Below are positions 47 through 60,108 of a DNA stretch of 64,000 nt, piece after piece; position 1 is the stretch's first letter, and every line of letters starts with the position of its first letter. The stretch is from Escherichia coli (GTDB taxonomy: Bacteria > Pseudomonadota > Gammaproteobacteria > Enterobacterales > Enterobacteriaceae), in assembly GCF_016903815.1 (NCBI RefSeq), contig NZ_CP069973.1; one strand, written 5' to 3'. The translations under genes were made by a program, and so were the position numbers. The notes under the pieces were generated by a model. It was not told where the DNA came from. It did no database searches and was given only the letters and a program-made list of their open reading frames with translations.

Positions 47-1039
47 TTACTCGCGGAACAGCGCTTCGATATTCAGCCCCTGCGTTTGCAGGATTTCGCG
101 CAAACGGCGCAGGCCTTCAACCTGAATCTGGCGAACACGTTCACGGGTGAGGCCAATTTCACGACCTACATCTTCCAGTGTTGCCGCTTCGTACCCCAGC
201 AAACCGAATCGACGTGCCAGTACTTCACGCTGTTTGGCGTTCAGCTCGAACAGCCATTTGACGATGCTCTGCTTCATATCGTCATCTTGCGTGGTATCTT
301 CCGGACCGTTCTCTTTTTCATCGGCCAGGATGTCCAGCAACGCTTTTTCGGAATCACCACCCAGCGGGGTGTCTACCGAGGTAATGCGCTCGTTAAGACG
401 AAGCATACGGCTGACGTCATCAACTGGCTTATCCAGTTGCTCTGCGATCTCTTCCGCACTTGGTTCGTGGTCCAGTTTATGGGACAACTCGCGTGCGGTT
501 CGCAGGTAAACGTTCAGCTCCTTTACGATGTGAATCGGCAAACGAATAGTACGGGTTTGGTTCATAATCGCCCGTTCGATCGTCTGGCGAATCCACCAGG
601 TTGCGTATGTTGAGAAGCGGAAACCACGTTCCGGGTCAAACTTCTCTACCGCGCGGATCAGCCCCAGGTTGCCCTCTTCGATCAGGTCCAGCAACGCCAG
701 ACCACGATTGCCATAACGGCGGGCAATTTTTACCACCAGACGCAAGTTACTCTCGATCATCCGGCGGCGGGAGGCAACATCTCCACGCAGTGCGCGACGC
801 GCAAAATAAACTTCTTCTTCGGCCGTTAACAGTGGTGAATAACCAATCTCACCAAGGTAAAGCTGAGTCGCGTCCAACACACGCTGTGTGGCTCCCTGCG
901 ATAACAGTTCCTCTTCGGCCAAATCGTTATCACTGGGTTCCTCTTCTACTAAGGCCTTTTCGTCAAAAACCTCAACTCCGTTCTCATCAAATTCCGCATC
1001 TTCATTTAAATCATGAACTTTCAGCGTATTCTGACTCAT
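47..1039 (-). CDS. rpoS: RNA polymerase sigma factor RpoS (sigma-38)
   Basis: Track ORF 47..1075; protein recognised as RpoS. Start trimmed to internal ATG ([17 protein letters not shown]...), giving 330 aa. Codon 33 is GAG (Glu). Confidence 0.97.
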
Positions 1040-11126: not shown

Positions 11127-11765
11127 GGGAGTTCTACCGCAGGGGCGGGGAACTCCAAGTGATGTCCATCATCGCATCCAGTGCGTCCGGTTTATCCCCG
11201 CTGACGCGGGGAACACGTCAATAGGCGGCGTCCCGTAGCCGTCCCCTTCGGTTTATCCCCGCTGGCGCGGGGAACACGTTGAGGTCGATAAGTACGAACG
11301 GTTTCCCTGCGGTTTATCCCCGCTGGCGCGGGGAACACGATCGCCTGCTCCAGCGTCACTCCCTGCCCCTCGATTTATCCCCGCTGGCGCGGGGAACACT
11401 TCTGATACGTACTGAGGCCGGTTGTGATACGCGATTTATCCCCGCTGGCGCGGGGAACACTAACCCCCAATGAAGTTAATAAAGTCTATGGCCGATTTAT
11501 CCCCGCTGGCGCGGGGAACACATGAGATTAAAATACTCAGTACTCTTACTCGCCGATTTATCCCCGCTGGCGCGGGGAACACCAGCGTGGCGCGATAAAG
11601 CAATGTGTCTGGCTCGATTTATCCCCGCTGGCGCGGGGAACACCAGAGGCAACCGACGCGGATTCAGTAGGAAAGCGATTTATCCCCGCTGGCGCGGGGA
11701 ACACCGATAGACACTTTGCGGTCATTGTCTATTCGGCGATTTATCCCCGCTGGCGCGGGGAACAC
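11127..11765 (-). CRISPR. Type I-E CRISPR array: 10 regular 29-bp repeats plus one degenerate terminal repeat, 10 spacers of 32 bp
   Basis: Plus-strand repeat cggtttatccccgctggcgcggggaacac at 61-bp period. Repeats start ~11188, 11249, 11310, 11371, 11432, 11493, 11554, 11615, 11676, 11737; degenerate repeat ~11127..11155. AT-rich leader on the cas2 side, so transcription runs toward iap. Confidence 0.97.
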
Positions 11766-11861: not shown

Positions 11862-13071
<1,210 letters not shown>

Positions 13072-13075
<4 letters not shown>

Positions 13076-13722
13076 GCCTCTGCTCCGGGTTTGATCAGCA
13101 TCAGACCACAGCCGAACGCGCGGCTTTTGCCATACCCCTGGCTCAGACGTTGCAGAAATAACCCAGGATCGGTGACCGTAAGCATCCCCGTATAATCCAC
13201 GCTACTGAACTGGATCAGTTGCCGGGAGTTTTCCCGCCGCAGTTGCTGTTGTCGGTAGGCATCGACCGAGGTATCCAGTAGTGTAAAACCGCTTCTTTCC
13301 CCCTGCGCTGCCAGCCAGTCCAGCGCCGCCTGTTGTTGATGCAACCAGACATCACTTCCTTCCACCTGCCCCCTCACCTGCCGTTTCGCCTCCATCAGCA
13401 AGTCGTGGCGTTTGCCCGCTTTACAAATTGTTGGATTCGCCCGCAGGTTGAAACAAAGGGATTGTCCGGTACGCAACTCTGGCGCAAATGGTCGGCATTC
13501 GATGGTGAAAATATCACTTTCCGCCGGGCGTTCCTGCGACAGGACAAAAAAGCGAAACGCCCCCTGGAGTTCTTCCCGACGATAAAGAAATTGCCTTTCT
13601 TTGCCGCCAGGAAAAAGATCCCACAGCCACTGATGCATTACATATTCACCGCGACCCACCAAATGCAGCAACTGCGCAGGCAAAAGCTGGCCGGTATGTA
13701 AGGTTATTCTTGAGAGGTACAT
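13072..13722 (-). CDS. casE: CRISPR pre-crRNA endoribonuclease Cas6e (CasE/Cse3)
   Basis: Track ORF 13072..13860 trimmed to internal ATG (MYLSRITLHTGQ...), about 216 aa, with AGGAGG upstream. C-terminal glycine-rich G(F/M)GCGL-type motif. Start choice is inferred. Confidence 0.85.
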
Positions 13723-14450
13723 GGTTCCTCCTTGCTGAGCCACGGCCCCTGATTGATGGTGCGTTCCCCAAACAGCCACTGCTGACGATTTAAAGGAACA
13801 TCCCGGCGACGTAATATTTTGCTCGCGACCAGGCCGTCGTGTTCCCCTTCCCACCAGCATTCATCCTGAAGTTTCGGGAGTGAGACTTTCAGTTCGCGGA
13901 AACTATCCTGATACTGTTGGTATGCGTTACGTAAGACATCAGACGCGTTGCCTTCGAGCAGTAACGGCGCAAGTGGTAACGCCAGCGGATGACTTTTTCG
14001 CCCCAGATAAAGCGGAAAAACCGGATGACGTAAACCGTCCTGCAACTGTTCAAGCCTGTAAGACGCATCGGGGGTTGTTGCCACCGCCACCATCCACCAG
14101 GCATCGGTGTAGTAGTCGCGCCGGGAGATAATCGCGCTCAGAAGATCAGGGGCGCTCAACTCTTCGCGACGGCTGAAATAACGCGCTTTACGCACCTCTT
14201 TTGGCATCTGGACCGTGTGATAATCCCGTGCCCAGCGCGGGTTACGGCTGGCGCAAACCACCAGTGAATAGTGGCGGTTAAACGCGTTTAATCGTTCGGT
14301 ATCATCACGCCGAATCCCTACCCCGGCAGCCAGCAGCCCCAGCAATGCTGAGCGCGAAGGCAGTTCATGGGTATGACGCACTTCGCCGGGGGCATCGACG
14401 CCCCAGGATGCCATTGGCCCATGAAGCTGAAAAATCAAATATTGGCTCAT
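13704..14450 (-). CDS. casD: Cascade subunit Cas5e (CasD)
   Basis: 248-aa ORF at the Cas5 position between cas7 and cas6e; N-terminus (LIFQLHGPMASWG) is Cas5-like. Assigned by family resemblance and position. Confidence 0.85.
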   Translation of the reverse strand: MSQYLIFQLHGPMASWGVDAPGEVRHTHELPSRSALLGLLAAGVGIRRDDTERLNAFNRHYSLVVCASRNPRWARDYHTVQMPKEVRKARYFSRREELSAPDLLSAIISRRDYYTDAWWMVAVATTPDASYRLEQLQDGLRHPVFPLYLGRKSHPLALPLAPLLLEGNASDVLRNAYQQYQDSFRELKVSLPKLQDECWWEGEHDGLVASKILRRRDVPLNRQQWLFGERTINQGPWLSKEEPCTSQE

Positions 14451-14460
14451 TAGCCGCCCC

Positions 14461-15516
14461 TTACGCGCAGATAAAGTCCAGCACGTCCTTCATGCTTCCC
14501 TGTTTGTTCATCACGTCAAAGCTTACGCATTCGGTCTTCTGTTCATAGACCGTATTCATATTTTCGCGAAGCGTTGTAATACGCTGCACCGCCACATCTA
14601 ACTGCCGGGTGCCATTAATGGGTTCATAGAAAGCCGCCGCCAGAGAGCGTGGTTGTTCAGTGCCTTTTTCTGCCAGCGCCCAGGAGGCGTAGGCACGGCT
14701 GGCAAAGCTGTTCTGTTTGCCGGTTGGGGAGACTTTAAGTGCGGCTTCCGTAAAGGCGCGCAAGGTCTGATTAGCTAACGCTTCGTCACCGCCGAGGTTT
14801 TCGACCAGCAGATCTTTATCGATGCAGATATAGGTGTAGAACAGCGCAGAACCGAATCCGGTTTCACCAAGATGCCCGGCACCGGCATCTTCAGAAGCCT
14901 GGCGCAAATCATCAACGGCGGTGAAAAAATCATCTTCGACAATCGTTTCACTGACACCAAATGCATGCGCGACCTGGCAGGCGGCTTCAACATTAAATTC
15001 GGGTTTATTCGCCAGCATACGACCAAACATAGCGATATCTACCGCCATGCGATCTTTACGTAACAAAGCGAGATCTTCCTCTTTTGGCGCGCGCTTTTCT
15101 TCGGCCAGTTGATGGGCCAGCGCTTTTACGGCGTCAAATTCTGCCGGGCTGATATGGACTAGCTGTTCAGTTTCGGCGTTAGTGAGCGGATCTTTTGGTT
15201 TTTTGTCGTTTTTAGCTTTCCCAAGATAATCCGCAATTTTTGCCGCCCATTCGATGGCTTTTTTCTCTTCGATGCCTTTCTCAATCAGGATAGTTGCCGC
15301 CTCACGCGCAATACGCCCACTGCGAATACCAATATGGCCCGCCAGTGCCTGTTCAAAAAGTGCAGAAGTGCGCCACGCACGTTTCAGACTTTGTGAGGAA
15401 ACGCGCAGACGCGTTGCTCCACCCAGTACCACAGTTTTTGGCGCACCGGTGTCATCACGGTTAAGGTTGGCAGCAGGGTAAGCGGTTAACAAATGAAGCT
15501 GAATAAATGTCGTCAT
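14461..15516 (-). CDS. casC: Cascade backbone subunit Cas7e (CasC/Cse4)
   Basis: 351-aa ORF; N-terminus (LHLLTAYPAANLNRDDTGAPKT) resembles E. coli CasC. Confidence 0.9.
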   Translation of the reverse strand: MTTFIQLHLLTAYPAANLNRDDTGAPKTVVLGGATRLRVSSQSLKRAWRTSALFEQALAGHIGIRSGRIAREAATILIEKGIEEKKAIEWAAKIADYLGKAKNDKKPKDPLTNAETEQLVHISPAEFDAVKALAHQLAEEKRAPKEEDLALLRKDRMAVDIAMFGRMLANKPEFNVEAACQVAHAFGVSETIVEDDFFTAVDDLRQASEDAGAGHLGETGFGSALFYTYICIDKDLLVENLGGDEALANQTLRAFTEAALKVSPTGKQNSFASRAYASWALAEKGTEQPRSLAAAFYEPINGTRQLDVAVQRITTLRENMNTVYEQKTECVSFDVMNKQGSMKDVLDFICA

Positions 15517-15530
15517 GAGATAGTCCTTTA

Positions 15531-16067
15531 TTAATTTTGTTCGTTATCGGCGTCGCCAGCCTGGTAATATTCCAGCGCCCAGCGGATACGGATAAATTCT
15601 GTTGGCCGCTGCTGGCGGCGGTGATGATTGAGCAGGTCGTCGCTCTCCTGGCACCAGCGGAAAATATCTTCTGCCAAAGAGATAAGATTGACGGAACCAT
15701 TTAATAATTTGACCGCGCGACGTAACTGACGCAGTAAATCATCAGGCGTTTTTACTGCCGACAGGCGAGTAAAACGCCCCTCCGACATTACCGCCGCCAG
15801 CTGCGCGGCAAAAGGCTGCCGTTCATCAATAGCTTTAACATTGGCGCTAACTGCGGCGACCAGCGCCAGTGCGGTAAAACGCCACTCTTGTGCTTCAATT
15901 TTCCACAAAGTGTGGGTCTGCATCAGCAGAGAACGAAACCCTTCTGACAGACAAACATCATTAACCGTTGTGCTACGCCGCAGACTGGCACGATTGCCGC
16001 GTTTTTCCTGCAACTCTTCGTGCCATTTACGCAGCGTGGCTTTGTGCTCCTCTTTTACAATACTCAT
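15531..16067 (-). CDS. casB: Cascade small subunit Cse2 (CasB)
   Basis: 178-aa ORF between cse1 and cas7. Assigned by position and size; I do not recognise the sequence itself. Confidence 0.8.
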   Translation of the reverse strand: MSIVKEEHKATLRKWHEELQEKRGNRASLRRSTTVNDVCLSEGFRSLLMQTHTLWKIEAQEWRFTALALVAAVSANVKAIDERQPFAAQLAAVMSEGRFTRLSAVKTPDDLLRQLRRAVKLLNGSVNLISLAEDIFRWCQESDDLLNHHRRQQRPTEFIRIRWALEYYQAGDADNEQN

Positions 16068-17626
16068 TCAGCAGCCTCCTGCTTTTTCTCCCTGGCGGCT
16101 TTAGCATTTTGCTTCTCCGCCGATGTTGTAAAATATTTCTTGCGCGCGGTCATGACGCGTTTCAAATCAACGGGCTCATATGGATTGGTGAAGACACGCT
16201 CGTCAAAATCCTGACGCGCGAATAACCAAATTTCCTTTTGCCATTTGCTGAGTAATTCATCCGCATCCTGACCTTCTTCAATGTGGCGCACTAACCTCAG
16301 GAAGCGATGCTGAGTTTTGTTCCAGAAGTCGATATCCACAAAACTGAAATCACCCCGTGCACCTTTTGGATCGGAGAACCACGCTTCTTTCAATGCACTC
16401 CGTAACAGACTCAGAATCCGTGAAGCCGTTTGCGCAGCCAGCCGCAGCTTCGGTATCTGGCCTTCTTTTTTATCGAGCAGCAGCGGAAAATGGTGTTCGT
16501 ACCAACAGCGCGCTTTCATGTTGTCAAAATCATAACCAAATCCCCACAGGCCCACTTTTGCCTGCTTGAGACTGCTGGCATTAAAGAGTTTCACCACCAG
16601 CGCGGGAAGTTCCGTATTGTTTTCTGATTTACCCGTTTCGATAAGGCCTAACCAGTCGCGCCAGATTAAACCGCCTGGTTGTGGTTTGACCGAGTAAAAC
16701 TCGCCGCCCTCTTTAAGGGGTACACGGTAAGGCGTTAAGGGATGCTGCCACATGGCATAATTCGCGCCGTAATTTTTGGTCGTCATCAGGCTCAGGAGCG
16801 CGTCGTTCTGCTCGCCGCAAATATCGCAGTTGCCGACTGTCGTGGTATTAAAATCAATACGAATACGCCGCGGCATTCCCCAGTACGCCTGGAGTTTATT
16901 AACCTGATCATCGGTTACCACCGCACCGGCCAGTTCGCTGGTACGCGTCGGGCCAAGCCAGGGGAAAACCAGATCGTCAAATTTTTTGGGTAGCGGTAAG
17001 TCGGCTTCGTCCTGCGGCATCACATTGAGCCACAGTTTGCGCCACAAGGGCGTTTGTTGATTGCCCTGATATTCCTGTAATTCAATCAGAGTGGTCATCG
17101 GCCCACCGCCGCGTAAACCGGTGCGGTAGCCTTTACCACCTGACGGCGCATTTAACTGTAGGGAGAACAGAGCTAACGCAGAACAATGTGGGCACAGGTA
17201 TTCCGTTACACCACGCTTGATAAAGTGGTCTTTATTAAACTTCGTTGTTTGAGCGCCGGGAATCTCAGGCAGTAGCGAAGCGACCTGAACTTTATCTCCT
17301 GTGAGCGCCTCGAAATCCTGCATAAATGAAGGGGAATCTGGCCCAAACTGGAAAGCGTGTTCTAAGGACAGCAATGCTTCCCGTAGCTTTTCAGATTCCA
17401 GTCCGTCTTCCCAGATATCATCCCAACGACGATGATCTTTTGGCGCAAAGCTGGTTTGTAGTAGCCCCAGCAAAAACTGCCATGCCGCTCCCTGGAGATC
17501 TGCCCGTGGCGCAGCAATATCGACAACATTTTCATCCGCCAGATCGACAGGCGCCAGTTTGCCTGTCGTTCCGTCTTTATAACGAACGGGCAACCACGGG
17601 GTTGTCAGAAGTGAAAACGAGTTCAT
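16064..17626 (-). CDS. casA: Cascade large subunit Cse1 (CasA)
   Basis: Track ORF 16064..17695 trimmed to internal ATG (MNSFSLLTTPWLPVRY...) with GAGAGGA upstream, about 520 aa. Assigned by position and N-terminal resemblance; start uncertain (alternative ATG 6 bp upstream). Confidence 0.82.
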   Translation of the reverse strand: MNSFSLLTTPWLPVRYKDGTTGKLAPVDLADENVVDIAAPRADLQGAAWQFLLGLLQTSFAPKDHRRWDDIWEDGLESEKLREALLSLEHAFQFGPDSPSFMQDFEALTGDKVQVASLLPEIPGAQTTKFNKDHFIKRGVTEYLCPHCSALALFSLQLNAPSGGKGYRTGLRGGGPMTTLIELQEYQGNQQTPLWRKLWLNVMPQDEADLPLPKKFDDLVFPWLGPTRTSELAGAVVTDDQVNKLQAYWGMPRRIRIDFNTTTVGNCDICGEQNDALLSLMTTKNYGANYAMWQHPLTPYRVPLKEGGEFYSVKPQPGGLIWRDWLGLIETGKSENNTELPALVVKLFNASSLKQAKVGLWGFGYDFDNMKARCWYEHHFPLLLDKKEGQIPKLRLAAQTASRILSLLRSALKEAWFSDPKGARGDFSFVDIDFWNKTQHRFLRLVRHIEEGQDADELLSKWQKEIWLFARQDFDERVFTNPYEPVDLKRVMTARKKYFTTSAEKQNAKAAREKKQEAAE

Positions 17627-17723
17627 ACGCATCCTCTCGTAAAAAAGACCATCCCAGGTCGGTTGTCCATCATTCCATCCTTTTCGGTGTATCAACTATT
17701 CAGAGAGCCCTGTCGCAGGCATC

Positions 17724-20423
17724 TCAACCAACCTTGCCAGTCAATCCTTCCATAGCCGAATACCCGCAACTTTCGTCATCGGTAACTAAAATCACGTTTG
17801 CCATCTCCGGATCTTTCCGCTGTTCAATGCACCACTGCCTGAACGCTTCCCCTTCCAGTAAAGAAAACTCATCCCGATGTTTTTTCCACCAGCTTCGACG
17901 CACTCTGACAACGCTCATTTCCCATGCGTGAGCACCGTTGGCATAAGGCTTCACCACACTGGCAATACAGGTAGCCAGCCACAGGGAAACAGACTCCTCC
18001 GCCAGACGTGTCGACAGCTTTTCCGGAAGGTAATCGTTGATATTGGCGGCATAGCCAGGCCTGAAGTTCAGCACAAACTTTTTAGCCATTGCGCGATCGC
18101 AGTAATATTTGCCCACTTGCTCCTGCTCGCTGCGGGCAAATCCTTCCGGCATTACCACGTCCTCACCGTAGACTGATTCAATAAGAAGGCGGGCTGCGTG
18201 TGGCATTTGAATAGCGCCTTGCTCACGCAGTACACGCTGCGTCAGCCAGATTCGTCCATGATCGGGATAGACATATGCACTGTTACGCATGGCACTGCCG
18301 AACCATTCGTCACCTGGAGCGTCGTCCCAGACGGGGGCCAGAATCAGCAATTCAGGAGGGGAACGCTCGTCTTTTCCGTCACGCTTTAACTGACCATTAA
18401 TATCGCGGATATGCCGCTGTAATCGCCCCGCTCGCTGGATCAGCAAATCAACAGGGGCCAGGTCGGAAATCATTTCGTCCATATCGCAATCAACGCTCGA
18501 CTCTAAGACCTGAGTACAAATGAGGACTTTTCCGGCACGCTGTGAGCTATCTTCTTTACCGAAGCGTGCCAGCGTTTCCGTTTCAATTCGCTGGCGATCG
18601 CTAAAAGCAAAGCGGCTATGAAACAGAGAAAGGCTGGAAGCAGGAATGACGCCGCGGGCAAGCAACTGACGATAAACCTTAATAGCGTCATCGACAGAAT
18701 TCCGGATCCAGGCGATGCATTTCCCCTGACTTACTGCCGATTCGATACGCGCAATACATTCTTGTTCGCTATGAAGCCAACCCACGCTCACGCTACGCTC
18801 AACGTCTTTGCGCGTCGCTACCCGGTGTGAATGCACATCGGATTTCGTAACGTGCGTCAGCCAGGGGTAATCATCCTTTTCCAGGAACGGAGCTTCTTGC
18901 TGGCCCTCTGTACCACGCGCAAAGGCAGCAACGAGTTTGTCGCACTGCTGTTGAGATAACGTGGCAGAAAGCAAAATGACGCTGTTTCCGCCACGCGCCT
19001 GCCGCTCGATCAGCCCTTCAAGAATGCATGACATGTAAGCGTCACAGGCATGGATCTCATCAGCCAGCAGGATTTTGTTACTCAGTCCCAGAAGCCGCAG
19101 ATTATTATGTTTGAACGGCATCACAGCCATCATCGCCTGATCCAGCGTGCCGACGCCAATTTCAGCCAGTAGCGCCTTCTTGTTACTGTCGGCAAACCAG
19201 GCCGCACATCCCTGACTGAACGTTTGTTCATCCGGTTCTTCTGACCCGACTAAATCACCGGACCAGAGTGATTCATTAAAGCGGTCCATTAATGTTCGGG
19301 CACTGTGTGCCAGCACCAGGCTGGGGCGGGACTCTGGCGAATAGAAAGCAAGCCAGGTTTTGACCAGTCGATCGTACATGGCATTGGCCGTTGCCATTGT
19401 TGGCAGGCCAAAAAACAAACCCTGCGCTTTACCCGCAGCCATCAACCTGTGCGCCAGGATAAGCGCCGCTTCCGTTTTACCTGCGCCAGTCACATCTTCC
19501 AGAATAAATAACTGTGGCCCTGGCTGGCTGATATCCAGATCCAGCACCTTTTGCTGTAACGGTGTCGGATTCTCAATAAAAGGAAACAGCGTATTAATTC
19601 CGGTGAAAGGCGCGACTTTTGCTTTTAGAGGAAAGACGGTTAAGGCGTTTTGAGCCTGAACTAAAGTTTTCTGCCAGTAACCTTTAATATCCATTGGGTG
19701 TGCGACGCGTGGAAAAAATCGCGTTGACGAACCCGTCCAGTCTGCGAGCACGACGGTTGCAGAGATATACCAGGAAAGGTGTTTTATAAGTTCAATGCCC
19801 TCATCATCATCCCAGAATGCGGGGATCTCTATGAGCGGAAACAGTGGTTTGATTTCAAGAAGAAAATCTCGCGCGGCAGCTTTGTCTTCAGGCAGAAAAT
19901 TATCCAGTTCATCAATACGGTCAGGCGGGCGACCATGATGCCCGGTAGTTATGGGCATCCACATCTCCATCACCCGTTTAAGTTTGCGCGGAGAGAGTGA
20001 AGATGAAGGAAGCAATTCTTCGTATTCACTTAAATAATGATGCCACAGCCAGTAGCCCAGCGTTGAATGAGAGATCTTTTCGTAATTCTTTCTTGCGCCT
20101 TCCGGAACCTTGAGTTGTGGGTGCAGGTAAAGTTGCTGAAAAGAGCGGGCAAATTTTCCAGTATCGTGCCAGCACAATAGCCAGGCGAAAAATTGTGCTG
20201 CCTGCTCCGTATCAGCGAAACCTAGTTGACGAAAATAGTCAGTCAGCCCGAAGCAATTGCTTTTAACCATTAAATAGCCCATCGCGGCTACATCCAGCGA
20301 ATGCCAGCAAAGAAGGTGATAGTCGTCGCCCCCGTCTTTCTCGCCGCGTCGGGTTTTTCCCCAGAAATCAAAAAAAGTCACAATATTTTTATCCTTCAGT
20401 AAACTTAAAGGATATTTACGCAT
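17724..20423 (-). CDS. cas3: CRISPR-associated nuclease/helicase Cas3 (HD nuclease + DExH helicase)
   Basis: 899-aa ORF with N-terminal HD-like region (HSLDVAAMGY), Walker A (GAGKT) and DEIH box; ATG start. Confidence 0.95.
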   Translation of the reverse strand: MRKYPLSLLKDKNIVTFFDFWGKTRRGEKDGGDDYHLLCWHSLDVAAMGYLMVKSNCFGLTDYFRQLGFADTEQAAQFFAWLLCWHDTGKFARSFQQLYLHPQLKVPEGARKNYEKISHSTLGYWLWHHYLSEYEELLPSSSLSPRKLKRVMEMWMPITTGHHGRPPDRIDELDNFLPEDKAAARDFLLEIKPLFPLIEIPAFWDDDEGIELIKHLSWYISATVVLADWTGSSTRFFPRVAHPMDIKGYWQKTLVQAQNALTVFPLKAKVAPFTGINTLFPFIENPTPLQQKVLDLDISQPGPQLFILEDVTGAGKTEAALILAHRLMAAGKAQGLFFGLPTMATANAMYDRLVKTWLAFYSPESRPSLVLAHSARTLMDRFNESLWSGDLVGSEEPDEQTFSQGCAAWFADSNKKALLAEIGVGTLDQAMMAVMPFKHNNLRLLGLSNKILLADEIHACDAYMSCILEGLIERQARGGNSVILLSATLSQQQCDKLVAAFARGTEGQQEAPFLEKDDYPWLTHVTKSDVHSHRVATRKDVERSVSVGWLHSEQECIARIESAVSQGKCIAWIRNSVDDAIKVYRQLLARGVIPASSLSLFHSRFAFSDRQRIETETLARFGKEDSSQRAGKVLICTQVLESSVDCDMDEMISDLAPVDLLIQRAGRLQRHIRDINGQLKRDGKDERSPPELLILAPVWDDAPGDEWFGSAMRNSAYVYPDHGRIWLTQRVLREQGAIQMPHAARLLIESVYGEDVVMPEGFARSEQEQVGKYYCDRAMAKKFVLNFRPGYAANINDYLPEKLSTRLAEESVSLWLATCIASVVKPYANGAHAWEMSVVRVRRSWWKKHRDEFSLLEGEAFRQWCIEQRKDPEMANVILVTDDESCGYSAMEGLTGKVG

Positions 20424-20617: not shown

Positions 20618-20770
20618 CTACTTCTTCGATTCGTAAGCGAGAACTGCCTTAAACTCCATACCACGTTCTCTGATACTCAACTCACACAACGAGTCGCCTA
20701 CCATCAGCGTGAATCCCAGTACTGTACAACACAGTACGATGATTGCCACAAGGGCATATTTTGTCAGCAT
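20618..20770 (-). CDS. Hok/Gef-family type I toxin (HokE-like small membrane peptide)
   Basis: 50-codon ORF not in the track (too short): [53 protein letters not shown] with GGAGG 6 nt upstream; single N-terminal TM helix; conserved Hok C-terminus (LCE...AVLAYE). Translated by hand. Confidence 0.8.
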
Positions 20771-21034
20771 GTCTTGCCTCCCTGCAAAGAAGAGACTAAC
20801 ATTCGAATTGCTTAGGTTCGAACGCTGGCCTCAGGTTGATAGAAATATCGCCTGGGGCTTTTGTCCATCTGGAACCTCGCGAATGCTTAACGCCAGACAG
20901 CCTCAAGCACCCAACGCCATTCTATACCTGATAATTCTTCCAGCGGCGTTCACGTTTAAAATCAGGAATGCTGCTCGCAAAATAAAAACGCCCCCATCAT
21001 TTCTGACAGAGGCGTTTAATTTATCCGGCAATAT

Positions 21035-28310: not shown

Positions 28311-28840
28311 TGAACTGCACCCCAAATGTTGGACATAATCTGACATCTGAAGGTGCAGTTTATGAAACATTCATTTGAAGTAAAACTTGCCGCTGTAAAT
28401 CATTACCTGGCTGGTCATGCAGGCATCATTTCTACGGCAAAACTCTTTCAACTTTCTCACACCAGCCTCTCACACTGGATTAATCTTTTTCTTCTTCACG
28501 GTCCTCGGGCACTGGATTGCAGACACAAGCGTAGCTATTCTCCTGAAGATAAACTTTGCGTGGTTCTTTATGCTCTCGGGCATTCTGAGTCTCTACCCCG
28601 GGTAGCTGCCCGGTTTAACATTCCCAGCCACAACACGGTTAAAAACTGGATAAAAGGCTACCGCAAATCTGGTAATGAGGCCTTTATCAGGCGCAGGAAG
28701 GAGAAAAGCATGACCCGTTCTGATGATACCCATGAAAACGAGGCAAACATGACGCCGGAAGAGATGAAGAATGAGCTACGTTATCTTCGCGCAGAAAATG
28801 CATATCTGAAAGCCATGCAGGAGCATCTCCTGGAAAAAAA

Positions 28841-29761
<921 letters not shown>

Positions 29762-38902: not shown

Positions 38903-39236
38903 TGGTTTATTCCCGCTGGTGCGGGGAACTCATCAGTGATATCCAACATTGCGGAGCTAAACGCGGTTTATCCCCGCTGGCGCGGGGAACTCTAATATCC
39001 CTGGCGATAATCAACCGGCTTACTCGGTTTATCCCCGCTGGCGCGGGGAACTCGAGAGCGAGGGGAGATTCCGGCAGGGCGTGCACGGTTTATCCCCGCT
39101 GGCGCGGGGAACTCGCGGGTATGCTCCGCTCCGTGTTCGACAAACTCGGTTTATCCCCGCTGGCGCGGGGAACTCAAGGTCGCGGGGACGCCACGGGCAG
39201 TCAATGTCGGTTTATCCCCGCTGGCGCGGGGAACTC
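38903..39236 (-). CRISPR. Second type I-E CRISPR array: 6 repeats (first degenerate), 5 spacers of 32 bp
   Basis: Repeat cggtttatccccgctggcgcggggaactc at 61-bp period, starting ~38903 (degenerate tggtttattcccgctggtgcggggaactc), 38964, 39025, 39086, 39147, 39208. AT-rich leader on the queE side. Confidence 0.95.
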
Positions 39237-45584: not shown

Positions 45585-45920
45585 CTACCCAATCAGCACG
45601 TTAATTTTGGCTTTAATGAGCTGTAATTCCTCTGGGGCAACCGTTCCTTTCTTCGTTGCTCCTCTTGCCCGCCAGGCGATACTTTTTACCTGATCAGCTA
45701 ACGCTACGCCATCACGTTCCTGACCGGATAAAACAACTTCGAACGGATATCCTTTTGATTGCGTTGTACAAGGAACACACAGACACATACCTGTTTTGTT
45801 GTTGTACATGAACGGACTCAGGACAACAGCCGGACGATGTCCGGCTTGCTCGCTACCTTTTGTCGGGTCAAAATCAACCCAAATCAGATCGCCCATATCG
45901 GGTACGTATCGGCTTACCAT
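45585..45920 (-). CDS. mazF: Type II toxin MazF (mRNA interferase, ACA-specific endoribonuclease)
   Basis: 111-aa ORF ([35 protein letters not shown]...), recognised as MazF. Confidence 0.96.
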   Translation of the reverse strand: MVSRYVPDMGDLIWVDFDPTKGSEQAGHRPAVVLSPFMYNNKTGMCLCVPCTTQSKGYPFEVVLSGQERDGVALADQVKSIAWRARGATKKGTVAPEELQLIKAKINVLIG

Positions 45921-46168
45921 TACCAGACTTCCTTATCTTTCGGCTCTCCCCAGTCGATATTCTCGTGGAGGTTTTCCGGCGTGATGTCGTTGACCAGTTC
46001 AGCAAGCGTAAATACGGGCTCTTTACGCACTGGCTCAATAATTAATTTGCCATCCACCAGGTCAATCTTCACTTCATCATCAATATTCAGATTGAGCGCC
46101 TGCATTAACGTAGCCGGGATCCGCACCGCCGGTGAATTTCCCCAACGCTTTACGCTACTGTGGATCAT
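45920..46168 (-). CDS. mazE: Type II antitoxin MazE
   Basis: 82-aa ORF ([27 protein letters not shown]...), recognised as MazE; stop overlaps mazF start. Confidence 0.96.
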
Positions 46169-46245
46169 AACCCTTTCCTCAAACCGCTATCATATGTAGA
46201 TACAGTATATATCAATCTACATTGTAGATACGAGCTAATTTCGGC

Positions 46246-48480
46246 CTAACTCCCGTGCAACCGACGCGCGTCGATAACGTCTGGCACCTGATTGAGTTTA
46301 CCCAGCACGCGGCCCAGCACTTGCAGATTGTAAATCTCAATGGTCATGTCGATAGTCGCCAGTTGCTGTTTAGTGTCGCTACGGCTGGCAACGCCAAGCA
46401 CGTTCACCTTCTCGTTGGCAAGAATGGTCGTGATATCACGCAATAATCCACTGCGATCATTGGCCATCACCCGGACCACCAGCGAATATCCGGCGGAGTA
46501 GCTCTCACCCCATACCGCGTCAACAATGCGTTCTGGCGCATGGGAGCGCAGTTCCGCCAGTTGTTCGCAATCGGCGCGGTGTACTGAAATACCGCGTCCC
46601 TGGGTAATGAAGCCGACAATCTCATCTCCAGGAATCGGCTGACAGCAGCGCGCGATGTGGTGCATCAGGTTGCCGACACCTTCTACCACCACACGACCGT
46701 TATCTTTACTGCGGTTTTGCGGCGTATAGCTTTTTTGCTGAAGTTGCTTCAGCGCGGCGGCATCCTGCTCTTCGGCACTCGGCTTATTAAATTGCGATTG
46801 CAGGAAGTTCACCATCTGATTGAGACGGATATCCCCGCCACCAATTGCCGCCAGCAACTCGTCGACATCATTGAAGTTGTAACGCGGCAGCAGATGTTTT
46901 TCTGCTTCTTTCAGGCTGATCCCCAGATGTTCCAGCTCGTCGTCAAGGATTTGCCGCCCAGCCAGAATGTTTTTGTCACGGTCCTGTTTACGGAACCAGG
47001 CGTGAATTTTCGAACGCCCACGGCTGGTTGTGACGTAACCGAGGTTTGGGTTTAACCAGTCACGGCTGGGGTTCGGCTGTTTCTGGGTGATAATTTCAAT
47101 CTGGTCGCCCATCTGCAGCTGGTAGGTGAACGGCACAATGCGCCCGCCAATTTTTGCCCCGATGCAGCGGTGTCCGACATCACTGTGGATGTGGTAAGCG
47201 AAGTCCAGCGGTGTTGATCCCGCAGGCAAATCAACGACGTCACCTTTCGGCGTAAAGACGTACACCCGGTCGTCAAAGACCTGGCTGCGTACTTCGTCGA
47301 GCATTTCGCCGGAATCAGCCATCTCTTCCTGCCACGCAATCAGTTTACGCAGCCAGGCAATTCGGTCTTCATGTCCCGAACGTGCGCCGCCAGCTGCCGC
47401 GCCTTCTTTATATTTCCAGTGCGCAGCAACACCCAACTCTGCATCTTCATGCATCTGTTTGGTGCGGATTTGGATCTCTACGGTTTTGCCACCTGGTCCC
47501 AGAACCACGGTATGAATAGACTGATAACCGTTTGGTTTCGGGTTAGCGACGTAATCGTCAAACTCATCCGGCAGGTGGCGATAGTGAGTGTGCACTATCC
47601 CCAGTGCGGCATAACAATCCTGTAAACGCTCGGCGACAATACGTACCGCACGCACATCAAACAGCTCATCGAAGGCGAGGTTCTTTTTCTGCATTTTGCG
47701 CCAGATGCTGTAGATGTGTTTCGGACGACCATACACTTCAGCTTTAACGCCTTCAGCTTTCATCTCAGCGCGCAGATGACCGACAAACTCTTCGATATAG
47801 TGTTCGCGGTCGAGACGGCGTTCATGCAACAGTTTTGCGATGCGTTTGTATTCGGTCGGGTGGAGATAACGGAAGCAGTAATCTTCCAGCTCCCATTTCA
47901 GTTGTCCAATCCCAAGACGGTTCGCCAACGGCGCGTAGATATTGGTGCACTCTTTTGCCGCCAGTACGCGTTCATCTTCCGGCGCGTCTTTTACTTCGCG
48001 CAGATGAGCAATACGCTCTGCCAGTTTAATGACCACGCAGCGAAAATCATCGACCATCGCCAATAACATCCGGCGAACGTTATCGACCTGTTCGGAGGAA
48101 ACAGAATCGGTATGCGTCGCTTTCAGCTGGCGGATCGCCGCCATATCACGCACGCCGTGAATAAGGTTAACGACCGACTTACCGACGCACTCACGCAGCA
48201 CATCTTCGCTGACTACGTTGGCATCCGCCAGAGGGAACAGCAGCGCCGCCCGCAGCGTGTCAATGTCCATACTTAATGTCGAGAGGATCTCCACCATCTC
48301 AACACCACGCCACAATAACAGACTGGCATCCGGATGTCCCTGCGTCTGTTGCAGACAATACGCCCAGGTTTCGGCTAAGCACTCACACGACTTCTGGCTG
48401 GTAATACCCAGACTTGCGATCCATTTTTCCGGATCAAATTCACCAGCCTTATTGATATGTGCACTTCTTACCGCAACCAT
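46246..48480 (-). CDS. relA: GTP pyrophosphokinase ((p)ppGpp synthetase I)
   Basis: 744-aa ORF recognised as RelA. Confidence 0.98.
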   Translation of the reverse strand: MVAVRSAHINKAGEFDPEKWIASLGITSQKSCECLAETWAYCLQQTQGHPDASLLLWRGVEMVEILSTLSMDIDTLRAALLFPLADANVVSEDVLRECVGKSVVNLIHGVRDMAAIRQLKATHTDSVSSEQVDNVRRMLLAMVDDFRCVVIKLAERIAHLREVKDAPEDERVLAAKECTNIYAPLANRLGIGQLKWELEDYCFRYLHPTEYKRIAKLLHERRLDREHYIEEFVGHLRAEMKAEGVKAEVYGRPKHIYSIWRKMQKKNLAFDELFDVRAVRIVAERLQDCYAALGIVHTHYRHLPDEFDDYVANPKPNGYQSIHTVVLGPGGKTVEIQIRTKQMHEDAELGVAAHWKYKEGAAAGGARSGHEDRIAWLRKLIAWQEEMADSGEMLDEVRSQVFDDRVYVFTPKGDVVDLPAGSTPLDFAYHIHSDVGHRCIGAKIGGRIVPFTYQLQMGDQIEIITQKQPNPSRDWLNPNLGYVTTSRGRSKIHAWFRKQDRDKNILAGRQILDDELEHLGISLKEAEKHLLPRYNFNDVDELLAAIGGGDIRLNQMVNFLQSQFNKPSAEEQDAAALKQLQQKSYTPQNRSKDNGRVVVEGVGNLMHHIARCCQPIPGDEIVGFITQGRGISVHRADCEQLAELRSHAPERIVDAVWGESYSAGYSLVVRVMANDRSGLLRDITTILANEKVNVLGVASRSDTKQQLATIDMTIEIYNLQVLGRVLGKLNQVPDVIDARRLHGS

Positions 48481-49885: not shown

Positions 49886-52642
49886 ATGACCAACTACAGC
49901 CTGCGCGCACGCATGATGATTCTGATCCTGGCACCGACCGTCCTTATTGGTTTATTGCTGAGTATCTTTTTCGTTGTGCATCGCTATAACGACTTGCAGC
50001 GTCAACTGGAAGATGCCGGAGCCAGCATTATTGAGCCGCTTGCAGTTTCTACTGAATATGGCATGAGCCTGCAAAATCGCGAATCTATCGGTCAGTTAAT
50101 AAGCGTACTGCATCGTCGCCATTCCGATATTGTTCGCGCGATTTCGGTTTATGATGAAAATAACCGACTCTTTGTCACCTCCAATTTTCATCTTGATCCT
50201 TCATCAATGCAGCTCGGCAGCAACGTGCCGTTTCCTCGCCAGCTCACTGTCACTCGTGACGGCGATATTATGATCCTCCGCACGCCGATTATTTCTGAGA
50301 GTTACTCCCCCGACGAATCGCCCAGTAGCGATGCCAAAAATAGTCAAAATATGCTGGGATATATTGCGCTGGAGCTGGATCTTAAATCGGTTCGCTTGCA
50401 GCAATATAAAGAGATCTTTATTTCCAGCGTGATGATGCTGTTTTGTATCGGTATTGCGCTTATTTTTGGCTGGCGCTTAATGCGCGATGTAACCGGTCCG
50501 ATTCGCAACATGGTGAATACCGTCGACCGCATCCGTCGCGGGCAACTCGACAGCCGGGTGGAAGGATTTATGCTCGGCGAGCTGGATATGCTGAAAAACG
50601 GTATCAACTCGATGGCAATGTCGCTGGCTGCTTATCACGAAGAGATGCAGCATAATATCGACCAGGCGACGTCCGATCTGCGTGAAACGCTGGAGCAGAT
50701 GGAAATTCAGAACGTTGAGTTGGATCTGGCGAAAAAGCGCGCCCAGGAAGCGGCGCGTATTAAATCCGAGTTTCTGGCAAATATGTCACACGAGCTGCGT
50801 ACACCACTGAATGGTGTTATTGGCTTTACCCGCCTGACGCTGAAAACAGAATTAACACCAACGCAGCGCGATCACCTGAATACGATTGAACGTTCGGCAA
50901 ATAATTTGCTGGCAATTATTAATGATGTTCTCGACTTCTCGAAACTGGAAGCAGGTAAGCTGATTCTGGAAAGTATTCCATTCCCACTACGCAGCACGCT
51001 GGATGAAGTCGTTACCCTGCTGGCACATTCTTCTCACGATAAAGGGTTGGAACTGACGCTCAATATTAAGAGCGACGTGCCCGATAACGTGATCGGCGAC
51101 CCACTGCGATTACAGCAAATCATCACTAACCTGGTGGGGAATGCAATTAAATTCACCGAGAATGGCAACATTGATATTCTGGTAGAAAAACGTGCGCTGA
51201 GTAATACCAAAGTGCAGATTGAAGTGCAGATTCGGGATACCGGCATTGGTATTCCTGAACGCGATCAATCGCGCTTATTCCAGGCCTTCCGACAGGCTGA
51301 TGCCAGTATTTCCCGCCGTCATGGTGGTACCGGGCTGGGGCTGGTGATTACACAAAAACTGGTTAATGAAATGGGCGGCGATATTTCGTTCCATAGCCAG
51401 CCGAATCGCGGTTCAACTTTCTGGTTCCACATTAATCTCGATCTGAATCCGAACATTATTATCGAAGGGCCATCCACCCAGTGCCTCGCCGGCAAGCGCC
51501 TGGCCTATGTCGAACCAAACTCCGCAGCAGCGCAATGCACGCTGGATATTTTAAGTGAAACGCCGCTGGAAGTGGTTTATAGCCCAACGTTCTCCGCGCT
51601 GCCTCCCGCGCATTACGACATGATGTTGTTAGGCATCGCGGTGACCTTCCGCGAGCCGCTAACAATGCAACATGAGCGATTAGCGAAAGCAGTATCGATG
51701 ACCGATTTTCTCATGCTGGCACTTCCTTGCCATGCACAAGTCAATGCTGAAAAACTTAAGCAAGATGGTATCGGCGCGTGTCTGCTGAAACCATTAACAC
51801 CTACGCGCCTGTTACCTGCCCTGACGGAATTTTGTCATCACAAACAAAACACGCTTTTGCCTGTAACCGATGAAAGTAAGCTGGCAATGACAGTCATGGC
51901 GGTTGATGACAACCCCGCTAACCTGAAACTTATCGGCGCATTGCTGGAAGATATGGTGCAACATGTGGAACTTTGCGATAGCGGGCATCAGGCGGTTGAA
52001 CGGGCGAAACAGATGCCGTTCGATTTGATCTTAATGGATATTCAAATGCCGGACATGGACGGTATTCGGGCCTGCGAACTCATCCACCAGCTCCCCCATC
52101 AGCAACAAACGCCGGTTATCGCGGTAACGGCGCATGCAATGGCCGGGCAAAAAGAGAAGCTGCTTGGCGCAGGGATGAGCGATTATCTGGCGAAACCGAT
52201 TGAAGAAGAACGATTGCATAATTTGCTGTTGCGCTACAAGCCTGGCAGCGGTATTTCCTCTCGCGTCGTGACGCCCGAAGTCAACGAAATTGTGGTGAAC
52301 CCGAATGCGACCCTCGACTGGCAACTGGCACTACGCCAGGCAGCAGGAAAAACCGATTTAGCGCGCGATATGCTGCAAATGTTACTCGATTTCCTGCCTG
52401 AAGTTCGCAACAAAGTTGAGGAACAGCTGGTTGGAGAAAACCCGGAAGGCCTGGTTGATTTGATTCATAAACTGCATGGCAGTTGCGGCTATAGCGGTGT
52501 GCCGCGTATGAAGAATCTCTGCCAACTGATCGAACAACAGCTACGTAGCGGTACTAAAGAAGAAGATTTGGAGCCGGAGCTGCTGGAACTGTTAGACGAG
52601 ATGGATAATGTAGCGCGCGAAGCCAGCAAAATTCTCGGGTAA
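49886..52642 (+). CDS. barA: Hybrid sensor histidine kinase BarA (HAMP, HisKA/HATPase, receiver, HPt)
   Basis: 918-aa ORF with H-box (SHELRTPLN), receiver Asp region and C-terminal HPt; recognised as BarA. Confidence 0.96.
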
Positions 52643-57829: not shown

Positions 57830-58612
57830 TTAGGAACTTATCTCTCCATCCTGACCCGATGGCGCACTGAACTCAACCCTTTCATTTTCAGGAAGCAGAC
57901 CCCGCCAGCCAAATTGTGATAACGCCTGCATCCAGGTGTCGTCCAGGCCCGCGTGAATAGTCAGCGGCTCGCCAGTAAAAGGATGCGTCAATGACAACTG
58001 ACTGGCATGCAGCATTAACCGCTGAAGGCCAAAATGTTCAGCACCGCTGCGATTCTGGCGTAAATCACCATGTTTGCTGTCGCCAATAATCGGGTGGCGC
58101 AAATGGGCAAGATGGCGACGGAGCTGGTGCTTACGTCCAGTTTTCGGCTCCAGTTCCACCAGGCCGTAGCGCGTGGTCGGGTAACGTCCGGTCGCTATCG
58201 GCATTTCTACGGTCGCCAGACCGCGATAATGCGTCACTGCTGGCTGTGGGCCTTTATCTTCGCGGGCAAATTTATCAGCGATTTTGTCCAGTTCTTCCAC
58301 CAGTGGATAATCCAGAACTGCTTCTTCCATCAACCAGCCGCGCACAATCGCATGGTAACGTTTCTGGATTTGGTGCTGTTCAAACTGTTGTGCCAGCAGC
58401 CGTCCGGCCTCGCTGGATAATCCCATCAACAACACACCAGAAGTGGGTCGGTCCAGACGATGAGCAGTAAACACATGCTGGCCTATCTGGTCACGCACGG
58501 TTTGCATGACCACTACTTTCTCGTCGCGATCCAGCCAGCTGCGGTGAACCAGCCAGCCGGAGGGTTTATTTACCGCAACCAGCCATTCATCCTGATAGAG
58601 TATTTCCAGCAT
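57830..58612 (-). CDS. truC: tRNA pseudouridine(65) synthase TruC
   Basis: 260-aa RluA-family ORF ([12 protein letters not shown] motif). Confidence 0.92.
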
Positions 58613-58941
58613 TAGCTCGCATCATCCGCAAAAAGAGCATCCAGTTTTTCCAGCTCAGCCAGAATAAGCGCGCGTTGCGGGTGGTCCGTCGCCAGCGCCA
58701 TTTCATAATAGGGTGCAACGGCAAAAGCGCCCGGTAACGGCTGGTTGTTATCTAACAAATCGTGCATTCGCGGGATCAGCACCCACTGCAACCACTCCAG
58801 TGGTTCCATGGTGTCCATAAAGAACGGTTGGGTACTGTTAAATTGATGCGGCTGGGGTTCATCGTTTTGCCAGTGCTGATGTTCACGCAGTAATGCTTCA
58901 AGCGCCTGCAGCTGGAGACGAACGCGGTCATGAGTGGTCAT
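58612..58941 (-). CDS. yqcC: DUF446-family protein YqcC
   Basis: 109-aa ORF; stop overlaps truC start; conserved synteny. Confidence 0.85.
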   Translation of the reverse strand: MTTHDRVRLQLQALEALLREHQHWQNDEPQPHQFNSTQPFFMDTMEPLEWLQWVLIPRMHDLLDNNQPLPGAFAVAPYYEMALATDHPQRALILAELEKLDALFADDAS

Positions 58942-58986
58942 AAAGCAACCTCAATAAGAAAAACTGCCGCGAAGGATAGCAGGAAT

Positions 58987-59352
58987 AAAAAAAGGGAGCA
59001 CTGTATTCACAGTGCTCCCGGTTCGTTTCGCAGCATTCCAGCTACTTTTGTTGCTCCCTGCTCATCCTTGACAACTTTTCCTCTGGCCTTGCGGCCAATC
59101 GTTCATCCTGAACTATTGCTTCCTGCTCACACCACCCCGATGTGATACTTCATCCTGAAGTGTCCCTGGCCTTCCTGACCCACCGAATCATCCTGACCGG
59201 TTCTCATTCTCCATCCTGGAGGTGTCCTTTAACGCGTCCTGCGTCATCCTCTTCGCTTCATCCAGAAGCCTTTCCCTGAAACACCATCCTGGTGTGTCCT
59301 TCAGAAGTGTCATCATCCTGATGTTCACTTCGTTGTCTGACTCCCTGTCGAC
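58987..59352 (-). ncRNA. csrB: CsrB small RNA (CsrA-sequestering sRNA)
   Basis: About 365-nt non-coding region on the minus strand carrying about 18 GGA motifs, many as CAGGAUG (plus-strand catcctg). 3' terminator hairpin gggagcactg...cagtgctccc plus U-run at ~58987..59019. 5' end approximate. Confidence 0.85.
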
Positions 59353-59562
59353 GAAGATAGAATCGTCTTTTTCGCGAAGACTTACAAGGCGCTTACAGAC
59401 AATGCCTTAAGGAAAATTTCATATGAAAGTTAAGAATTGACAAGCAATATATTGATTTTAAATGAAAATAACGATTCTTATCTTTTTAAGTATTCGCTTA
59501 TTTCCTGGCGATCTCCTACAGAGTCTGTAAGAGATCTCTCACAACCAGATGGGGTATTTGGA

Positions 59563-60108
59563 TTACAGAAGAGGCTTAAGTTGATTAAGGAATTCCGCAA
59601 GATTTGAGGCTAAATGCGTCCGTTTACGTGTTCCCAGCGTCTCTTTGCACACTTCACCGGAGAGATTACACACCGAGATGACCTCTAACTCTTCTTCCAG
59701 CGTCGCGATAAATAGCGTGGGCGGCAGTTTTAGCCTTTTCTGAGTCACCAGATGACCAATCAGATTTTCCTGCACCCGACGGAAATCGTCTTCACTCCAG
59801 GTTTGCAGCAATGTCAGTTTGATATCGCCAAACTGCGCGTGCATATCCCCGGCAAACTGAGTCGTATAAAAGGTATGAATCGTGGGTTGTATCACAATAT
59901 CAAAAGCGCGTTCAACCGCGTTTACATTTTGTTCCCCGGTAAACGGCTGGGGTTGCCAGTATACGGCATCTTCGGTAGTTGAAATAATGCACGGTGAAGG
60001 AACGCCGTACAGTTCCTCACTCAACGGCCAGCTTTTATGCTCTTCATGCCACGCATCGCAGTAACATGCAGTAAAATCTTTCAGGGCTTGTGCGGTCAAA
60101 TCGTCCAC
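59563..60108 (-). CDS. syd: SecY-interacting protein Syd
   Basis: 181-aa ORF recognised as Syd; conserved synteny next to queF. Confidence 0.9.

Follow-up and report, generated by a model that had tools for sequence, protein, structure and literature searches.

The csrB locus between yqcC and syd

The window, that is, the whole 64-kb stretch of E. coli DNA that was analysed, is identical over its entire length (100%) to E. coli strain 7/2 (NZ_CP023820.1, positions 3155464..3219463). On its minus strand lies csrB (58984..59352), a gene for a 369-nt non-coding RNA that was delimited by a match to Rfam family RF00018 and by alignment with b4408 of K-12. It is flanked upstream by syd (59563..60108; NCBIfam NF003439, 284.6 bits) and downstream by yqcC (58612..58941), both on the minus strand and both named as in the annotations of strain 7/2 and K-12. 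The hybrid sensor kinase gene barA (49886..52642, plus strand) was recognized from NCBIfam NF008318 (1623.9 bits; cut-off 890) and from the PGAP and K-12 annotations. In the numbering used below, +1 of csrB is window position 59352, such that RNA position p equals 59353 minus the window coordinate.

Several lines of evidence identify the gene. An Rfam 15 scan of the whole window placed CsrB/RsmB (RF00018) at 58984..59343 on the minus strand with 382.9 bits (gathering score 71; E = 2.2e-111), and the match covers model positions 1-356 of 356 without truncation. The orthologous interval of K-12 MG1655, likewise flanked by yqcC and syd, carries an annotated ncRNA, csrB (b4408, 369 nt). A column-for-column alignment with this gene has coincident ends, 367 of 369 nt identical (99.5%), and two substitutions. 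The proposal of an earlier note, made from the sequence alone, that a csrB sRNA of the CsrB family occupies the yqcC-syd intergenic region therefore holds, since the full-length Rfam match, the K-12 alignment, and the flanking genes agree. Its 3′ coordinate (58987) needs to be moved, as the K-12 annotation ends csrB 3 nt further out, at 58984.

For strain 7/2, RefSeq (PGAP) has entries for syd and yqcC only, with no csrB feature between them (window 58942..59562). This is an annotation gap and not evidence of absence, and the point made earlier that an ORF-type track is blind to this gene applies to the public annotation as well. The 751-nt csrB region was found in 5425 of the 5426 complete E. 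coli genomes, and 681 complete genomes have at least 99% identity over this query. As separate observations on these searches, one of the 5426 genomes has no match, one match is located on a plasmid-typed record, and the region occurs in two places in some E. coli genomes.

The closest known system is csrB of K-12 (b4408), which shares the syd/yqcC locus, the 369-nt extent, the 22 GGA sites, the UvrY repeat centred at -183/-182, the TGTAGGAGA element, and the RNase E cleavage segment. The two substitutions in the RNA are at nt 51, where K-12 has C and this copy has A (CUGAAGGAC here and CUGCAGGAC in K-12; A is the Rfam consensus base), and at nt 340, where K-12 has G and the A found here makes the terminator stem perfect, the terminators being otherwise alike. 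The control region of K-12 differs from the window at one promoter-spacer base (-28) and at four bases of the AT-rich region; these four lie within the IHF-like site or directly downstream of it, and two of them occupy consensus N positions. None of these control-region differences changes the IHF consensus match, and the differences between the two csrB genes are allelic variation only.

We put the probability that this region is the orthologous and intact csrB gene of E. coli at about 97%, and no observation spoke against it. CsrB is a central switch in Csr, a global regulatory system that controls carbon metabolism, biofilm formation, motility, and virulence. The copy described here is an ordinary allele; the gene, its motifs, its UvrY/IHF control region, and its decay module have all been published previously, and the identification adds nothing new to the biology.

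Control region

Upstream of csrB, 20 nt after the stop codon of syd, we found the 18-nt inverted repeat TGTGAGAGATCTCTTACA (59526..59543, minus strand) at -191..-174, with its centre at -183/-182. This is an exact match to the UvrY-P binding site, which has been defined by footprinting and ChIP-exo and is centred at -183/-182 (PMC4682653). The earlier note had suggested looking for a UvrY-binding inverted repeat upstream of approximately 59352, and the exact repeat is present at the published position. It is the sole site in the window within three mismatches, with 0.04 expected by chance. Five base pairs further downstream is the extra UvrY half-site-like element TGTAGGAGA (59512..59520, minus strand; -168..-160), an accessory element that was also described in previous work (PMC4682653).

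The stretch from the UvrY site to the promoter contains AATCAATATATTG (59445..59457, minus strand; -105..-93), which matches the IHF consensus pattern WATCAANNNNTTR. A putative IHF site has been reported between two UvrY crosslink regions of csrB, and UvrY binding and csrB expression are optimal only with IHF (PMC4682653); AATCAATATATTG probably corresponds to that site. The promoter itself was placed by reading the sequence from the K-12 +1 and by conservation. It is a weak sigma-70 type promoter (59359..59387, minus strand) with TTGTAA at -35..-30, a 17-nt spacer, and GATTCT at -12..-7, matching seven of the 12 consensus positions. A sigma-70 consensus scan of 58850..59650 found no consensus promoter and nothing stronger than TTGTAA-N17-GATTCT. 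Such a weak promoter fits with activator dependence.

For comparison across species, exact matches to the 18-nt UvrY box were sought in species-representative genomes, which yielded at least 120 loci, from which the csrB RNAs of 18 species (alignment A2) and the promoter regions of 18 species (alignment A3) were aligned. The inverted repeat is invariant in A3 because the loci were selected by that exact repeat. The TGTAGGAGA element, which played no part in locus selection, has TGT..GA.AT invariant in all 18 species. The TCA....TT core of the IHF-like site is largely conserved, and the promoter has the same TTG in its -35 element, the same A-11, and the same T-7 in every species. All 17 scanned Enterobacterales loci that hold the UvrY box have a full-length CsrB match (164-380 bits) downstream of it, at a distance of 164-202 nt and mostly 180-185 nt, and the synteny syd - UvrY repeat - csrB - yqcC - truC is kept in most Enterobacterales loci.

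The exact 18-nt box was also observed in Vibrio, Photobacterium, Shewanella, and other gamma-proteobacteria, often at two or three loci per genome. Six of 13 such loci that were scanned have a CsrB-family match beside the box, and these six are from Vibrionaceae. The box loci with no CsrB match may carry Csr-type RNAs that fall below the Rfam thresholds.

In vivo, UvrY also crosslinks to a promoter-proximal region of csrB at -56 to +25; the inverted repeat is not preserved there, and whether this downstream contact is direct or indirect was left open (PMC4682653). In the window, the promoter-proximal region contains two TGTAAG half-boxes, namely, GTCTGTAAG at -48..-40 and TTGTAAG at -35..-29, the second of which overlaps the -35 element. 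In GTCTGTAAG, the right arm of the UvrY repeat recurs in inverted orientation together with three flanking bases, so that CTTACAGAC (59523..59531) and GTCTGTAAG (59392..59400) form a 9-nt perfect inverted repeat. If IHF bends the DNA at approximately -100, UvrY-P on its upstream site could contact such promoter-proximal half-sites as well. Direct binding of UvrY through these half-boxes is nevertheless doubtful. The half-box at -48..-40 is kept only in Escherichia, Citrobacter, and Kluyvera in A3, which counts against it, and for TTGTAAG, which is conserved more widely than the -48..-40 copy, a role as the -35 element is explanation enough.

The same control region bears on the question of whether the locus could instead hold the paralogue CsrC or a decayed, non-functional csrB copy. 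CsrC and the Pseudomonas RNAs RsmY, RsmZ, and RsmX lie at other loci, belong to other Rfam families, and are shorter than CsrB with fewer GGA sites. Likewise, they carry several GGA hairpins that titrate CsrA/RsmA and respond to a GacA/UvrY-type regulator acting on a TGTAAG-N6-CTTACA-like box (PMC4682653). The repeat of csrC is less symmetric than that of csrB, and IHF is not needed for csrC (PMC4682653). Membership of CsrB and CsrC in one Rfam clan, together with GGA hairpins and UvrY control in both, would make a confusion conceivable; however, CsrB, matched at full length, wins the clan competition, the csrB annotation of K-12 lies in this very intergenic region between syd and yqcC, and the repeat in the window is the near-perfect csrB palindrome and not the weaker csrC repeat quoted in PMC4682653. 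Decay is contradicted by the presence of only two substitutions in the RNA, the A at nt 51 agreeing with the Rfam consensus and the second change turning a G-U pair of K-12 into A-U in the terminator, and by the intact promoter, UvrY site, IHF-like site, and terminator. We thus regard a paralogue or a decayed copy as very improbable, and an intact csrB remains the reading followed below.

GGA motifs, structure, and conservation of the RNA

The csrB RNA contains 22 GGA triplets, which is the count published for E. coli CsrB (PMC5027483); the figure of approximately 18 given in the earlier note was too low. This is the top count for any 366-nt stretch on either strand of the 64-kb window (minus-strand mean 5.5, sd 2.6). 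The five 3′-most triplets, at RNA nt 272, 286, 296, 314, and 335, correspond to sites 18-22 of PMC5027483, and site 22 falls within the terminator stem.

Enrichment of the plain triplet is modest (22, compared with 15.2 in dinucleotide-preserving shuffles; 10 of 2000 reach 22), because these shuffles retain the GG and GA content. Longer motifs are far more distinctive. The heptamer CATCCTG on the plus strand (CAGGAUG on the transcript), whose recurrence had drawn attention to the region, has six of its 17 copies in the whole 64 kb within 58987..59352, compared with 0.10 expected from shuffles. The csrB interval also contains 14 copies of AGGA (shuffle mean 5.0), nine of CAGGA (shuffle mean 1.4), and eight of AGGATG, and none of these four counts was reached by any of the 2000 shuffles. 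The enrichment signal is carried by these longer motifs and by their placement in loops.

The minimum-energy fold of csrB has -119.9 kcal/mol (z = -4.4). In this fold, nine GGA triplets are in hairpin loops, eight others are fully unpaired, three are partly unpaired, and two are paired. The number in hairpin loops compares with 1.83 +/- 1.26 in shuffles, and the number fully unpaired (17) with 4.73 +/- 1.75; neither was reached by any of the 300 shuffles. GGA enrichment over shuffled sequence and a hairpin-loop placement of the motifs, which had both been expected of a CsrB RNA, were thus observed (nine in loops, with 1.8 expected). GGA bases have a mean unpaired probability of 0.81, compared with 0.44 overall. 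When the Rfam consensus structure is applied, all 11 non-terminator hairpins have a loop GGA in this sequence.

The RNA ends in an intrinsic terminator (58987..59019, minus strand), for which a terminator scan gave a stem at 59019..58994 followed by U7 at 58993..58987. The stem is a 100% complementary inverted repeat of 11 bp (seven G-C) with a loop of four, which substantiates the strong 3′ hairpin with a U-run that had been described from the sequence. Its helix (helix 11) has compensatory changes at four pairs among 18 species. Two terminator-like hairpins on the plus strand (59208..59222 and 59350..59367) were set aside; they have no plus-strand gene upstream and were read as by-products of CsrB hairpins and promoter-region sequence.

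The consensus structure of A2 comprises 53 pairs, 28 of which have compensatory changes among the 18 Enterobacterales species. Paired cells amount to 92.3%, compared with 35-48% when the partners are slid by one to three columns, and the covariation score of 0.316 compares with 0.07-0.09 for slid partners and was reached by none of 500 column shuffles. The 3′ third is the most conserved part of the RNA, including GAGCAGGGAGCA, GUAGCnGGA, and AAACGAA.

This pattern of conservation also decides against a small protein encoded in the region, with the AGGA motifs resembling Shine-Dalgarno sequences by coincidence. Candidate products would be a 46-aa ORF starting with GTG on the csrB strand (59188..59328) or plus-strand ORFs of 45-71 aa. 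Mechanical ORFs of 45-71 aa do overlap the csrB region on both strands, and the 46-aa frame remains open in E. albertii. However, all four overlapping ORFs are broken outside Escherichia in most of the 18 species, by lengths that are not a multiple of three or by one to five in-frame stops, and the comparison of these four ORFs across the 18 species revealed no conserved reading frame over csrB. Conservation follows the hairpin stems with their compensatory changes and not codon positions, and the full-length Rfam match accounts for the whole region. The earlier statement that the yqcC-syd region holds no ORF is accordingly true of conserved frames and does not apply to chance ORFs, and a coding function is highly unlikely. 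The remaining reading, GGA richness and hairpins as a chance feature of an intergenic spacer, has the least claim of all; the plain GGA count is attained by 10 of the 2000 dinucleotide-preserving shuffles, but the heptamer and hexamer motifs, loop placement, hairpin number, and folding energy are reached by none, and covariation in 18 species and the Rfam E value of 2e-111 also speak against it.

Predicted regulation, RNA decay, and linkage to barA

With csrB accepted as an intact gene, the mechanism can be outlined from published work in K-12 (PMC4682653; PMC5027483), the steps being carried over on the basis of 99.5% identity. The BarA kinase would phosphorylate UvrY, and UvrY-P would bind the 18-nt inverted repeat at -191..-174. 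Bending of the intervening AT-rich DNA by IHF would then bring UvrY-P to the weak sigma-70 promoter, and a 369-nt RNA ending at the strong intrinsic terminator would be transcribed. This RNA is expected to expose most of its 22 GGA motifs in loops, on approximately 11 short hairpins, or in single-stranded linkers, where they would mimic the CsrA sites on mRNA leaders. By binding many CsrA dimers, the RNA would titrate CsrA off its mRNA targets. That BarA drives csrB through UvrY, as stated in the earlier note, is a published circuit (PMC4682653; PMC5027483). For this strain, we infer from the sequence a transcript of approximately 369 nt that would sequester CsrA in a BarA/UvrY-dependent manner.

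Turnover would begin with an RNase E cut in the unstructured segment GAAACGAACC (59020..59029, minus strand; RNA nt 324-333), which holds the RNase E "necessary cleavage site" immediately before the terminator. The major RNase E cuts are at A327 and A331 (PMC5027483), corresponding to window positions 59026 and 59022, and A327, C328, G329, A330, and A331 are all invariant in the 18 species of A2. Just upstream are GGA sites 20 and 21 (59055..59057 and 59037..59039, minus strand; RNA nt 296 and 314), and GAGCAGGGAGCA...GUAGCnGGA around these sites is likewise invariant in the 18 species. In K-12, CsrA bound to sites 20 and 21 shields the RNase E site (PMC5027483). The sequence of the whole decay module, i.e., the RNase E segment after GGA sites 20 and 21, is identical to that of K-12. 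By analogy with that work (PMC5027483), CsrA at sites 20 and 21 would protect the RNase E site in this csrB as well, and CsrD would override the protection.

The barA gene converges on csrB; the distance from the barA stop codon to the 3′ end of csrB is 6,342 bp, close to the approximately 6 kb estimated earlier. The genes in the interval are gudD, gudX, gudP, yqcA, truC, and yqcC. In every cross-species locus that is long enough (L046, L011, L013, L018, L060, L083, L088, and L096), barA is on the same side of csrB and in the same orientation. The gap is approximately 1.7 kb in E. albertii (L046), in which the gud operon is absent, and approximately 6.3 kb in E. coli with gudPXD; it is 3-9 kb in Enterobacter, Cedecea, and Pantoea, with up to approximately 9.4 kb in Pantoea stewartii. 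The linkage of barA and csrB is thus old and convergent across Enterobacterales, with variable cargo in between. The annotation of the window contains no uvrY. Since the signal from BarA to csrB runs through the diffusible UvrY and no uvrY is in the window, no cis mechanism is indicated, and a mechanistic role for the proximity of the two genes was considered and dropped, as nothing suggests one. In two species, a GcvB sRNA was noticed approximately 7 kb from csrB, namely, Serratia silvae (L042, 7414..7613) and Edwardsiella ictaluri (L065, 7905..8108). In these genera, the genes for two global regulatory sRNAs are neighbours.

Several other features of the window were recorded. A complete type I-E CRISPR-Cas system (cas2e to cas3, 11862..20423) with an adjoining array (11191..11765) and a second, orphan CRISPR array between ygcE and queE (38903..39236) were taken from the annotation of strain 7/2. 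A chromosomal type I toxin-antitoxin locus of the hok/sok type lies between cas3 and cysH (20755..20912 and 20618..20770, minus strand); its sok antitoxin RNA (RF01794, 111.7 bits; cut-off 59) overlaps a gene of the Hok/Gef family (50 aa) at the 5′ end of that gene and is missing from the PGAP annotation. An IS3-family element, IS1397, has a transposase with a programmed frameshift and is located between ygcP and ygcQ (28362..29710, plus strand). The genes rpoS, mazEF, and relA are also in the window (47..1039 and 45585..48480, both minus strand). The global stress and stationary-phase regulators rpoS, relA, barA, and csrB are thus found within 60 kb, as in the known E. coli map.
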